A stretch of 62,456 bases of DNA, counting the filler, from Actinomycetota bacterium (GTDB lineage Bacteria; Actinomycetota; CADDZG01; JAHWKV01; JAOPZY01), in the NCBI GenBank assembly GCA_025963875.1. It is 9 parts of 9 records of this genome, joined end to end, with 100 filler letters (N's around TTAATTAATTAA, not from the genome) between each part and the next. Parts side by side here need not be neighbours in the genome. Positions count along the whole stretch, not along the records: positions 1 to 13,330 come from JAOPZY010000163.1; 8 more parts are not named here. The stretch is one strand, 5' to 3'. The position numbers and the translations under genes are program-made. Under the pieces are notes generated by a model. That model was not told the DNA's origin and made no database searches. It worked only from the letters and a program-made list of their open reading frames with translations. The stretch's first letter is position 1; each line of letters opens with the position of its first letter. This document shows positions 1,461 through 13,430 of the stretch, piece after piece.

Positions 1461-1787
1461 GCGAGGTTCGCCTGGGTCTGTGGTTGCGGGATCCTCCCGG
1501 CAACGGGTGGGTCCTCAGTCCAGGCCAGTCGCAGGCAAAAGGATCCACGTAAGGCAACCATTGGTTGCTGAGCACGGTGCGACTTAGGGGTAAGTCCTGC
1601 CTCGAGCCCGGGATGGTCCCGGGTAGATCGGGAGAAGGTGCGAAGCATCGCCGGAGTCGACTCGCCAGTGCGGCATCAAGGGGGTCAGGCCGAACACGGC
1701 CCGTTTCCCTGCCGGGCGAAGGCGGCGTTGCGAGGCCTCAGCAGGCGGGTGTGGGGTCAAAGACCAGGTCAGCCGGGCGAACCTCGC
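1461..1787 (+). ncRNA. raiA-motif structured RNA (expanded variant)
   Basis: Has the raiA-motif conserved blocks in order: GGTCTGTGGTTG, GCCAGTCGCAGGCAAAA-GATCCACGTAAG, TGAGCACGGTGCGACTTAG, GTAAGTCCTGCC and CAGCAGGCGGGTGTGGGGTCAAAGACCAGGTCA. The closing stem is GCGAGGTTCGCC(1461)/GGCGAACCTCGC(1787). A -10 TATACT lies at 1452-1457, and the RNA is directly upstream of hpf/raiA. Confidence 0.9.
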
Positions 1788-11475: not shown

Positions 11476-11958
11476 ATGTCAAAGAAAAAGGGAGGGGCCA
11501 AGGCCAAGAGCAACGGGGCGGTCGCGACCAACCCCAAGGCCCGCCACGACTACGAGATCCTGGAGACGATGGAGGCCGGCATGGTCCTCACCGGCAGCGA
11601 GGTGAAGTCGCTGCGGGGCGGTTCCGCCTCGATGCGGGAGTCCTTCGCCATCATCCGGGACGGGGAGACCTGGCTGATCGGGATGCACATCGGCCCCTAC
11701 GCCCAGGCCGGGTACGCCGGCCACGAGCCCACCCGCACCCGCAAGCTGCTCCTCCACAAGGACGAGATCCAGCGCCTGGTGGGCAAGACGGCCGAGCGGG
11801 GCCTCACCCTCGTCCCGCTGAAGGTCTACTTCAACCACGGCCTCGCCAAGATCGAGCTCGGTCTCGCCAAGGGCAAGAAGACCTACGATCGGCGGGAGTC
11901 GCTCAAGGAGAAGGACGCCCAGATGCAGATCGACCGGGCGATGCGCCGGCGCCGGTAG
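11476..11958 (+). CDS. smpB: SsrA-binding protein SmpB
   Basis: NPKARHDYEILET, GSEVKSLR, RKLLLHK and GKKTYDRRE. Apparently leaderless (-10 TACGCT at 11464-11469). Confidence 0.98.
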   Translation: MSKKKGGAKAKSNGAVATNPKARHDYEILETMEAGMVLTGSEVKSLRGGSASMRESFAIIRDGETWLIGMHIGPYAQAGYAGHEPTRTRKLLLHKDEIQRLVGKTAERGLTLVPLKVYFNHGLAKIELGLAKGKKTYDRRESLKEKDAQMQIDRAMRRRR

Positions 11959-12010: not shown

Positions 12011-12925
12011 ATGCAGCCTTGGATGGCGCAGGCTACACGTCAGCATGGCGTCATCTCGGCGGCCGAACTCCGACGATTCGGACTCACGGAGAAGGCCATC
12101 AGATGGAGGGTTGAGACCGGGATCCTTCAACCGCTGTTCGTCGGTGTGTTCCTCGTCGGTGGCTCGCCCCGGACGTGGGAGCAGCGGATCACGGCAGCCG
12201 TCCGCTGGGGCGGGGACGGTGCCGTGGCTTCGTACAAATCGGCAGCGGCCCTTTGGAGGTTCGAAGGATTCGAGCCCGGCCCGCTGGAGATCTCGACCCT
12301 CAAACAGAACCGCCAGCGCCTCGGCTTCAAGGTGCACCGGACGCTGGTCGAGCCCGTGTTCATCACCACCAAAGCCGGCATTCCTGTCACCAGCCCCTCC
12401 CGCACGCTGCAGGACGTGGTGACCGTCGTCGACGAGCACCGTGGCAACCAGCTCTTCGACGAGCTGCTGCGCAAGGGCCTCGTCTCGATGGAGTCGCTCC
12501 AGCGCTACGTCGACCGGACCGAGTGCTCGGGCAACAAGGGTGTCGGGAAGCTACGGAGGATGGTGCGGCAGCGCAGCCCTGCCTACGAGCCGTCGGCCTC
12601 CGAGTTCCAGGCCCTGGTGCGACGGCTCCTGGCGGGGGCCGGCTTCGCATTCGTCGAGGAGTTTGTCGTCGTCGACAGCGACGGCACTTTCATCGGCCGG
12701 GCCGACTTCAAGTTGCTCGACGTCCCGGTGCTCGTCGAGGCGGAGGGCCGGGCCAACCACTCCTCGAAGGAGGACTTCGAGCACGACCTGAAACGGCGCA
12801 ACGGCTTCACGGCGGCGGGCTTCGCGACGGTCCACGTCACCTGGAACATGGCGCTGAACGATCCCGAGGTCTTCCTCGCCGAGGTGGAGCGGGCCCGGGA
12901 GAGTCAGCTCCGGCGGCGGGCGTAG
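12011..12925 (+). CDS. AbiEi-like N-terminal HTH plus DUF559/Vsr-like PD-(D/E)xK nuclease protein
   Basis: N-terminal ATRQHGVISAAELRRFGL (AbiEi_4-like), central GIPVTSPSRTLQD, and C-terminal RADF...VLVEAEG...H...DLKRRN...VHVTW. Confidence 0.75.
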   Translation: MQPWMAQATRQHGVISAAELRRFGLTEKAIRWRVETGILQPLFVGVFLVGGSPRTWEQRITAAVRWGGDGAVASYKSAAALWRFEGFEPGPLEISTLKQNRQRLGFKVHRTLVEPVFITTKAGIPVTSPSRTLQDVVTVVDEHRGNQLFDELLRKGLVSMESLQRYVDRTECSGNKGVGKLRRMVRQRSPAYEPSASEFQALVRRLLAGAGFAFVEEFVVVDSDGTFIGRADFKLLDVPVLVEAEGRANHSSKEDFEHDLKRRNGFTAAGFATVHVTWNMALNDPEVFLAEVERARESQLRRRA

Positions 12926-12978
12926 GCAGCGGCGGTACACTGGACCTCTTGACAACTGAATAGCGGTTGCTTCAACCA

Positions 12979-13330
12979 GGGGGCGAAATGGTTTCGAGGC
13001 CAGTATCGTGTCTGGTGGAAGCGGGCCGAGGTCCAGGTACCTCGTAAAACTGTCTGGAAAACTAACTTAAACGTCGCTGCCTAAGCGACTTCCCACCTCT
13101 AGATAGGTGGGCGTTCCACCCGGGAGTGCCTGCGGCCCGGGATGGGGCGTCGTGCAGCAGGATTACTCCGAGGCTCTCTGTTCGACGGACCTCGGGGGAA
13201 ATGAAGTCGGACTGGGCACCAGCAAGCTAGTTCGCGGCAACTGCTGGGCCGAGACAAGAAAGCGGACTACGCCCGTAGATGCCCCAGGTGTGAGCTGTTG
13301 CCGACCCGGGTTCAACTCCCGGCGCCTCCA
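12979..13330 (+). ncRNA. ssrA: tmRNA
   Basis: 5' GGGGGCG pairs with 3' CGCCTCC-A with G3:U. T-arm CCGGGTTCAACTCCCGG, pk1 at 13027-13058, and GCT GCC TAA within helix GTCGCT/AGCGAC. Located downstream of smpB. Confidence 0.95.
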
Positions 13331-13430
13331 NNNNNNNNNNNNNNNNNNNNNNNNNNNNNNNNNNNNNNNNNNNNTTAATTAATTAANNNNNNNNNNNNNN
13401 NNNNNNNNNNNNNNNNNNNNNNNNNNNNNN
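13331..13430. other. Artificial contig linker (N-TTAATTAATTAA-N). Identical linkers at 29316-29415, 34864-34963, 37639-37738, 41568-41667, 48778-48877, 55756-55855 and 59715-59814
   Basis: Identical 100-nt N-padded spacer with stops in all six frames. Genes are cut at each junction. Confidence 0.99.

Follow-up and report, generated by a model that had tools for sequence, protein, structure and literature searches.

A soil Actinomycetota tmRNA that probably reads a tag of three codons, a short frame shared by most tmRNAs of its class

Results

A tmRNA gene at a contig end

The DNA analysed here (the window) is a stretch of 62,456 nucleotides, filler included, in which nine contigs of a metagenome-assembled genome (MAG; GCA_025963875.1) are joined by linkers of 44 N + TTAATTAATTAA + 44 N; features on either side of the eight junctions (13331-13430, 29316, 34864, 37639, 41568, 48778, 55756 and 59715) are not true neighbours. 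Within it, cmscan aligned the plus strand at 12979-13333 to the full tmRNA model RF00023 (positions 1-374); its score of 135.8 bits exceeds the gathering score of 47, and the E value of 5e-53 rules out a chance match. The last three positions of the match (to 13333) are N. The gene itself ends at the discriminator A at 13330, which is also the final base of contig C57, and the CCA is not encoded inside the contig. When the whole MAG (273 contigs, 94.6% complete) was searched, this proved to be its sole RF00023 match above the cut-off. Judged from its sequence, the tmRNA gene (12979-13330) is complete, and its host is an uncultured soil member of the Actinomycetota. The tRNA-like domain is present, with a 7-bp acceptor stem, a T-arm and the discriminator A; the acceptor stem includes a G3.U pair (12981 G with 13327 T), which we take to be an alanine identity element. 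The parts of the gene, together with the upstream gene for its protein partner, are as follows.

11476..11958, + strand: smpB, encoding the tmRNA's protein partner (PF01668, 198.9 bits, profile positions 1-142 of 143)
12979..13330, + strand: tmRNA (ssrA) gene (RF00023, 135.8 bits; RNA-library contigs cover the gene)
12979..12985, + strand: 5' strand of the acceptor stem, GGGGGCG, pairing with 13323-13329 (sequence and cmscan structure line)
13027..13058, + strand: pseudoknot PK1, stem 1 13027-13031/13040-13044 and stem 2 13032-13039/13051-13058 (paired and covarying across the order)
13059..13072, + strand: single-stranded spacer with the frame-setting context (unpaired in the fold; T at -5 and A at -4 of 13073)
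13073..13084, + strand: likely tag frame GTC GCT GCC TAA, Val-Ala-Ala-stop (top resume-site score, 6.87; kept in 27/27 tmRNAs of the order)
13073..13089, + strand: hairpin 5a, stem 13073-13078/13084-13089, loop GCCTA (fold; the closing pair covaries)
13092..13111, + strand: hairpin 5b, CCCACCT/AGGTGGG, 13092-13098/13105-13111 (cmscan alignment; covariation)
13306..13329, + strand: T-arm (13306-13322) and 3' strand of the acceptor stem (13323-13329) (cmscan alignment)

Both here (13298-13330) and in four relatives (G001:C302, G016:C155, G024:C6 and G072:C112), the tmRNA gene stops at, or is truncated by, the end of a contig. Small separate contigs in the metagenome runs X9, X2 and X16 (see below) carry only the last 33 nt of the tmRNA, which in those of X9 and X2 are joined to different upstream sequence. 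Duplication of the ssrA 3' end by an integrated element would be expected to leave such a pattern; a second copy of that end was not found in the binned genome. Elsewhere in the window, 1467-1781 (+) matches the raiA motif RNA model RF03072 with 130.8 bits, above its gathering score of 101.3, and carries two long insertions that the model lacks.

The short frame lies in a hairpin of its own

An earlier analysis made from the DNA letters alone (the sequence-only reading) had described an intact PK1 followed by a collapsed tag region, with a minimal tag or none. The base-level description was borne out. In PK1, CGAGG (13027-13031) pairs with CCTCG (13040-13044) and TCCAGGTA (13032-13039) with TGTCTGGA (13051-13058); 23 nt (13059 to 13081) separate PK1 from the stop codon TAA at 13082-13084; and the helix GTCGCT/AGCGAC, in which 13073-13078 pairs with 13084-13089, has the tag frame inside it. 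Both proposed resume registers are also there, GTC preceded by TAAAC at 13073 and TAA preceded by TAACT at 13068, the latter TAA (13068-13070) falling within the spacer. The region is not collapsed in length, since the gene measures 352 nt against 353-365 nt in relatives with normal tags (short-tag genes span 352-365 nt) and a second hairpin follows at 13092-13111.

When 13059-13118 was folded alone (-21.1 kcal/mol, z -4.5), 14 unpaired nt were followed by exactly two hairpins. The first, 5a, contains the entire tag frame, while the second, 5b, occupies the position of helix 5 in the Rfam model and has TAG in its loop, where the 5b hairpins of short-tag genes often retain a stop codon. These structures are conserved: across 26 of the order's tmRNAs, the stems of PK1 and of both hairpins had 87.5% of their cells paired, versus 34-50% with partners slid, and the covariation score was 0.220 versus 0.121 after shuffling, with 0/500 shuffles reaching it. 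Taken singly, PK1 stem 1 was paired in 97.6% of cells across the order and hairpin 5b in 97.7%; both-sided changes were seen in 4/8 pairs of PK1 stem 2 and 3/7 pairs of 5b, and the closing pair of 5a covaries (UA 6, AU 5). Among 74 short-tag sequences, indels of 0-3 nt occur right after the short-frame stop and none within the frame, so the stretch past the stop behaves as non-coding. We conclude that the tmRNA has not shrunk, and that its short frame is housed in its own hairpin ahead of the retained helix.

The frame is shared by the order and most of its sister order

To place the frame in its lineage, we used 113 species genomes of the class, 80 of which had a tmRNA at E <= 1e-20. We aligned 81 tmRNA sequences and took the frame at the column of 13073; that of G072 was read separately. 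The window's order (families f1-f3) contributed 27 tmRNAs from 26/27 genomes, the one genome with no tmRNA match being G002 (82% complete), and the sister order (f4) contributed 55. All 27 tmRNAs of the window's order encode V-A-A-stop, with variation at third positions only: GTC, then GCT (20) or GCA (7), then GCC (12), GCA (9) or GCT (6), then TAA (25) or TAG (2). In the sister order the tag reads AAA in 45, VAA in two and a normal tag in eight (ADSNEFALAA in three, ADSNEYALAA in two, and ANSNEYALAA, ADSNEFAVAA and ADDTVAVAA in one each). Its resume codon is anchored, since short- and normal-tag genes share the same context, AACT before GCC, in the same column. Short tags thus make up 74/82 tmRNAs of the class. 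The sequence-only reading had asked whether a short mRNA-like domain might be lineage-wide; the minimal tag is indeed common to the whole order and most of the sister order, and is not peculiar to the window genome.

In the rest of the phylum, sampled evenly, a short tag was found in 0/135 tmRNAs. ARAGORN called 121 tags among these outgroup tmRNAs, 117 of them of 8-16 residues; four implausible calls gave frames ending ...LALAA or ...MALAA when re-read by hand, and the 14 sequences that it missed all have frames ending ...AA behind typical A/G-start tags.

The counts include unpublished genomes: G003, G007, G009 and G019 in the order (4/27); G027, G028, G030, G038, G061, G075, G080, G082, G094 and G101-G105 among the sister-order short tags (14/47); G035, G065 and G072 among the normal tags (3/8); and G188 and G194 in the phylum sample. 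Without them the conclusions stand, with 23/23 in the order and 33 short plus five normal tags in the sister order. Among the good-quality genomes of the class, 15/61, G039 and G040 included, had no tmRNA match at E <= 1e-20; as the gene often lies at contig ends, an assembly gap is a more likely cause than loss.

Two genomes yielded more than one match. G013, of the window's order, has two full tmRNA genes (L034 and L041, at C41:27865-28220 and C21:6840-7198), both VAA (GTC GCA GCA TAA and GTC GCA GCT TAA), a pair for which duplication, copying by a mobile element and a mixed bin are all possible sources. The outgroup genome G192 has three matches with differing tags, two of them on very short contigs: L155 is GKNNTQSAPALAMAA according to ARAGORN, and, read by hand, L094 ends ...ANDDNYALAA and L250 ends ...ANDENYGAEFKLAA. 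Contamination or phage copies are the likely source.

The resume position

We scored possible resume sites with a position matrix built from 116 outgroup resume sites, all of which have A at -4 and G at +1 and 113 of which have C or T at -1; the matrix ranked the true site first in 112/116. Within the window, 13073 scored highest (6.87), ahead of 13068 (-0.56) and 13052 (-6.46). True outgroup sites score 3.2 at the lowest and 14.2 at the median, with the 5th percentile at 7.4; the score of 13073 lies between the lowest value and that percentile. At 13073 the candidate resume codon begins with G, A stands at -4, and a stop follows in frame after three codons (TAAAC followed by GTC GCT GCC TAA). 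The peptide of the GTC frame is invariant and is the sole conserved product among the registers. Moreover, the G at +1 is invariant though its pairing partner is absent in 17/25 distinct rows; codon 3, which lies in the loop of hairpin 5a, still keeps its G and C, with only the third base varying; and G014 offers the GTC register only, in the context TAACT before GTC. The hairpin partly confounds this wobble-only pattern, the third base of codon 2 being part of a covarying pair.

Other observations speak against 13073. A GUN resume codon occurs in 0/116 outgroup tmRNAs; across the order the matrix puts the GTC site first in 15/27, a site 5 nt upstream in nine and TGA in three; and cmscan aligns the consensus resume codon, gapped and with a posterior probability of 0.4-0.6, to 13068-13069. 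The distance from PK1 does not discriminate: in a comparison of the outgroup table with two class rows, the outgroup median was 25 nt, and spacings of 23 nt (6/87) and 28 nt (5/87) fell in the two tails. Weighing these points, we regard 13073 as the likely resume position.

Resumption 5 nt earlier, at 13068, would give rescue with no templated tag and decouple it from tag-directed proteolysis: the codon there is UAA in the window, so release factors would terminate the chain once the alanine carried by the tmRNA had been added. Besides the cmscan placement and the nine relatives in which the matrix ranks it first, this register has T at -5 and A at -4 (TAACT before TAA), a distance of 23 nt from PK1 stem 1 that is within the outgroup range, and, in 17/27 relatives, a frame of 10-12 codons that mostly ends in the loop of hairpin 5b, the customary tmRNA stop site. 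Against these stand the nature of the codon itself (GAA in 25/27 and TAA in 2/27, the window and G014) and of what it would encode, namely products of 0 to 46 residues with no common C-terminus and none with a terminal Ala-Ala. The frame is shifted between close relatives by one-base indels past the VAA stop, and its variable bases land on second codon positions (L/Q, P/H/L). Resumption at 13068 also leaves the conservation of GYC GCT GCN TAA in both orders unexplained, and its score of -0.56 compares with 6.87 for 13073 and with outgroup sites that have G at +1 in 116/116. We consider it unlikely. The minimal tag of the sequence-only reading is thus upheld, and of its two versions, (A)VAA from 13073 is favoured over no tag from 13068; for the window, the tag has at most four residues under either register.

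The short end was probably reached in both orders separately

A tmRNA tree from which the tag and helix-5 columns were omitted recovered the window's order as a clade (support 100), and likewise the sister order (99), with normal-tag genes at the base of the latter; a branch with support 95 leaves out G033 and G065. Three tag changes are required on the quick-search tree and four on the carefully searched one. Forcing all short-tag rows into one group cost 48.6 log-likelihood units (AU p 0.048), a borderline value for a group that was named after seeing the tree. A quick-search ClpX protein tree, meant for counting origins, resolved only the two orders (100) and left the sister order as a comb. 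Direction gives a stronger argument than these trees: normal tags in the sister order are similar to tags found in other Actinomycetota (e.g. ADSHEFALAA and ADSEFALAA), so it is unlikely that they were regained from AAA. If regain is unlikely, a normal tag stood at the base of the sister order, and the window's order represents a separate shortening. The same short end was therefore probably reached separately in the two orders.

Partners and the putative degron

SmpB is encoded 1 kb upstream of the tmRNA as a full-length protein of 160 aa with a basic C-terminal tail, in the gene order RF2 gene, ftsE-like ABC ATPase, M23 peptidase, smpB, AbiEi-like ORF, ssrA; a search for this SmpB locus found one close relative, whose SmpB is 96% identical. 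The ORF between smpB and ssrA (12011-12925, +) encodes 304 aa whose N-terminal domain is of the AbiEi_4 antitoxin type (PF13338; 27.2 bits, cut-off 25; E 4e-6). The genome also encodes ClpX (667.8 bits), two ClpP, Lon, RF1, RF2 and a 173-aa ArfB-like frame. RqcH was not found in it, the NFACT_N match of 22.9 bits being below the cut-off of 31. ClpX is present in 100/113 genomes of the class and in 58/61 of the good-quality ones, and that of the window genome retains the motifs GYVG, ITRDV and GGRKH, presumably equivalent to E. coli Y153/V154, T199/V202 and R228/H230.

Overall, we think it fairly probable, if a little less so than the resume position, that the tmRNA is functional and that normal rescue appends (A)VAA, whose bare Ala-Ala-COO- would be a putative ClpX-type degron. 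SmpB would bring alanyl-tmRNA to a ribosome that has stalled where a broken mRNA ends, and the nascent chain would be moved onto the alanine. The preceding UAAAC, with its A at -4, would then direct translation to resume at 13073 on GUC, and the ribosome would read only GUC GCU GCC before terminating at UAA (13082-13084), leaving the rescued protein with just Ala-Val-Ala-Ala. Further contacts with ClpX would have to be supplied by the unfinished protein's own, usually unfolded, end, and (A)VAA would, we infer, lead to degradation by ClpXP.

The C-terminal Ala-Ala is supplied under the 13073 register only, and GCT GCC TAA is kept in 27/27 tmRNAs of the order. Published work on ClpXP describes the terminal Ala-Ala-COO- as the part of the ssrA degron that matters most (PMC7652416; PMC11317155). 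Some five residues of the tag make contact with ClpX (Fei et al. 2020, PMC7652416), and the same paper reports that E. coli ClpXP degrades GFP-YALAA and does not degrade GFP with a three-residue LAA, about five residues being needed. Of the roughly five accessible residues described there for the ClpX recognition complex, the tag would give four (A-V-A-A) and the substrate the remainder. For this reason (A)VAA is a plausible degron only if the substrate's end is accessible, as it likely is in truncated proteins. The genome's own proteins are not depleted in C-terminal Ala-Ala, which occurs in 49/1909 genes (2.6% versus 1.9% at internal offsets) among ORFs that were crudely called, chosen by GC3 and cover 55% of the genome; this counts against a strong, context-free Ala-Ala degron.

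It is also conceivable, if improbable, that the three codons are translated and the tag is no longer a degradation signal, in which case the tmRNA would be kept for ribosome release only and Ala-Ala would be a leftover of ...LAA. That proteins of this genome do not avoid C-terminal Ala-Ala would fit such a state, as would the presence of Lon and an ArfB-like gene, the stability of GFP with a three-residue tail (PMC7652416) and the statement in a review that cells need ribosome release by tmRNA and not degradation (PMC8012679). Drift would be expected of a leftover; in 74/74 short-tag tmRNAs, however, the two Ala codons and the stop persist with synonymous changes only, and since codon 3 is in the loop, pairing fails to explain its invariant G and C. 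The probable separate arrival at the same end in two orders and the retention of ClpX likewise speak against a leftover.

Independent contigs carry the same gene

The stretch was found in soil metagenome runs of 15 studies, six RNA libraries among them. Contigs of four runs were compared with the window.

X3, DNA from another study: contig over 12900-13330, two other letters, no gap
X9, DNA from another study: contig over 12947-13330, one other letter, no gap
X2, RNA, contig word depth 4190: 12979-13169, no cover upstream of 12975, one other letter, no gap
X16, RNA: 12950-13181, two other letters, no gap

No indel was listed in the tmRNA stretch across these contigs, and the sole recurrent difference, A>G at 13185 in those of X3, X9 and X2, is probably strain variation at a site that the cmscan alignment places in a downstream pseudoknot. 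The RNA-library contigs of X2 and X16 indicate presence only, as contigs give neither ends nor strand and DNA carry-over is possible.

Of the two programs that the sequence-only reading had proposed as checks, Infernal recovered the gene and ARAGORN found no tmRNA in the window. On 43 loci ARAGORN made eight tmRNA calls, with mostly implausible tags, and it gave plausible tags in only 2 of the 34 full-length class tmRNA loci tried. Because it missed the window and most of its called tags were implausible, it is unusable for this class, and annotation pipelines that rely on it would wrongly report the class as lacking tmRNA.

An artefact or decay, whether an assembly deletion, a degenerate second copy or VWKTNLNVAA read from 13052 as the true tag (all of them outcomes that the sequence-only reading had said would overturn it), might be suggested by ARAGORN's silence, by the contact of the gene with the contig end and by the absence in the window of an upstream stop in the VWKTNLNVAA frame, but it is highly improbable, for the DNA contigs of X3 and X9 and the RNA contigs of X2 and X16 are free of indels, the tmRNA is the only one in its genome, the three-codon frame is lineage-wide (27/27 in the order and 47/55 in the sister order), and the ten-codon frame is refuted by an in-frame TGA two codons ahead of GTC in 20/27 relatives, with 13052 lying within a covarying PK1 stem and scoring -6.46.

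Discussion

Beyond the window, it is possible, and we propose it tentatively, that a whole class of soil Actinomycetota has shortened its tag to V/A-Ala-Ala and nothing more, on two or more independent occasions (one in the window's order, one or more in the sister order), and that an Ala-Ala-COO- end suffices for quality control. If so, the rest of canonical tags would serve adaptors and extra proteases that this lineage does without, and the tmRNA of the sister order would write AAAA, a templated alanine tail with the same signal as the template-free tails of ribosome-associated quality control (RQC), an unrelated pathway. The lineage offers a natural test of how little tag trans-translation needs, with normal-tag relatives from the same family as built-in controls.

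With the canonical one-piece tmRNA (RF00023; (A)ANDENYALAA in E. coli) the gene shares the tRNA-like domain with its G3.U, PK1 ahead of the resume codon, A at -4 and G at +1, a hairpin that holds the last tag codons and the stop, downstream pseudoknots, an SmpB partner and a tag ending in Ala-Ala. It departs from that type in having three codons, where a 2021 review gives 8-35 residues (PMC8012679), in the extra hairpin 5a before the helix-5 position and in going undetected by ARAGORN. With nothing ahead of its terminal tripeptide, the window tag has no room for adaptor or second-protease sites.

Extremely short tmRNA tags have already been reported: a 2025 database paper describes 25 sequences with two-residue Ala-Ala tags, especially in Fermentibacterota, as well as some tag-less tmRNAs (PMC11915505), and the likely three-codon V/A-A-A tags of this Actinomycetota class add to them. 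Compared by description only, the two-residue-tag tmRNAs likewise have an extremely short frame of alanine codons in an otherwise complete tmRNA; those described here differ in belonging to Actinomycetota and in having three codons (V/A-A-A; GTC GCT GCC). The main text of that paper has 0 occurrences of 'actinobacter' or 'actinomycet', and its database may already list these genes. Its supplement, a gapped alignment in which such a search says little, gave 0 matches for the order's three mini-frame strings; two matches of one sister-order string were rejected as unrelated rows. Our literature searches turned up no report on this lineage. The two-residue tags of 2025 are the only shorter natural ones that we found in print, and the class forms a second, larger and well-sampled case (74/82).

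The tag-less tmRNAs listed in the same paper (mitochondria, some plastids, phage DS6A and possibly Nasuia; PMC11915505) would be a parallel if the 13068 register were used. As described there, they are without an mRNA-like domain, whereas the window tmRNA keeps PK1, the spacer, a conserved mini-frame and four pseudoknot regions. Finally, alanine tailing by RqcH/RqcP (PMC8012679, PMC11317155) resembles the tag proposed here in adding a short, alanine-rich C-terminal tail read by ClpXP, to which the predicted AAAA product of the sister order comes close; as those sources describe them, RQC tails are made template-free on a split 50S subunit, whereas here the tail would be templated, on the 70S ribosome.
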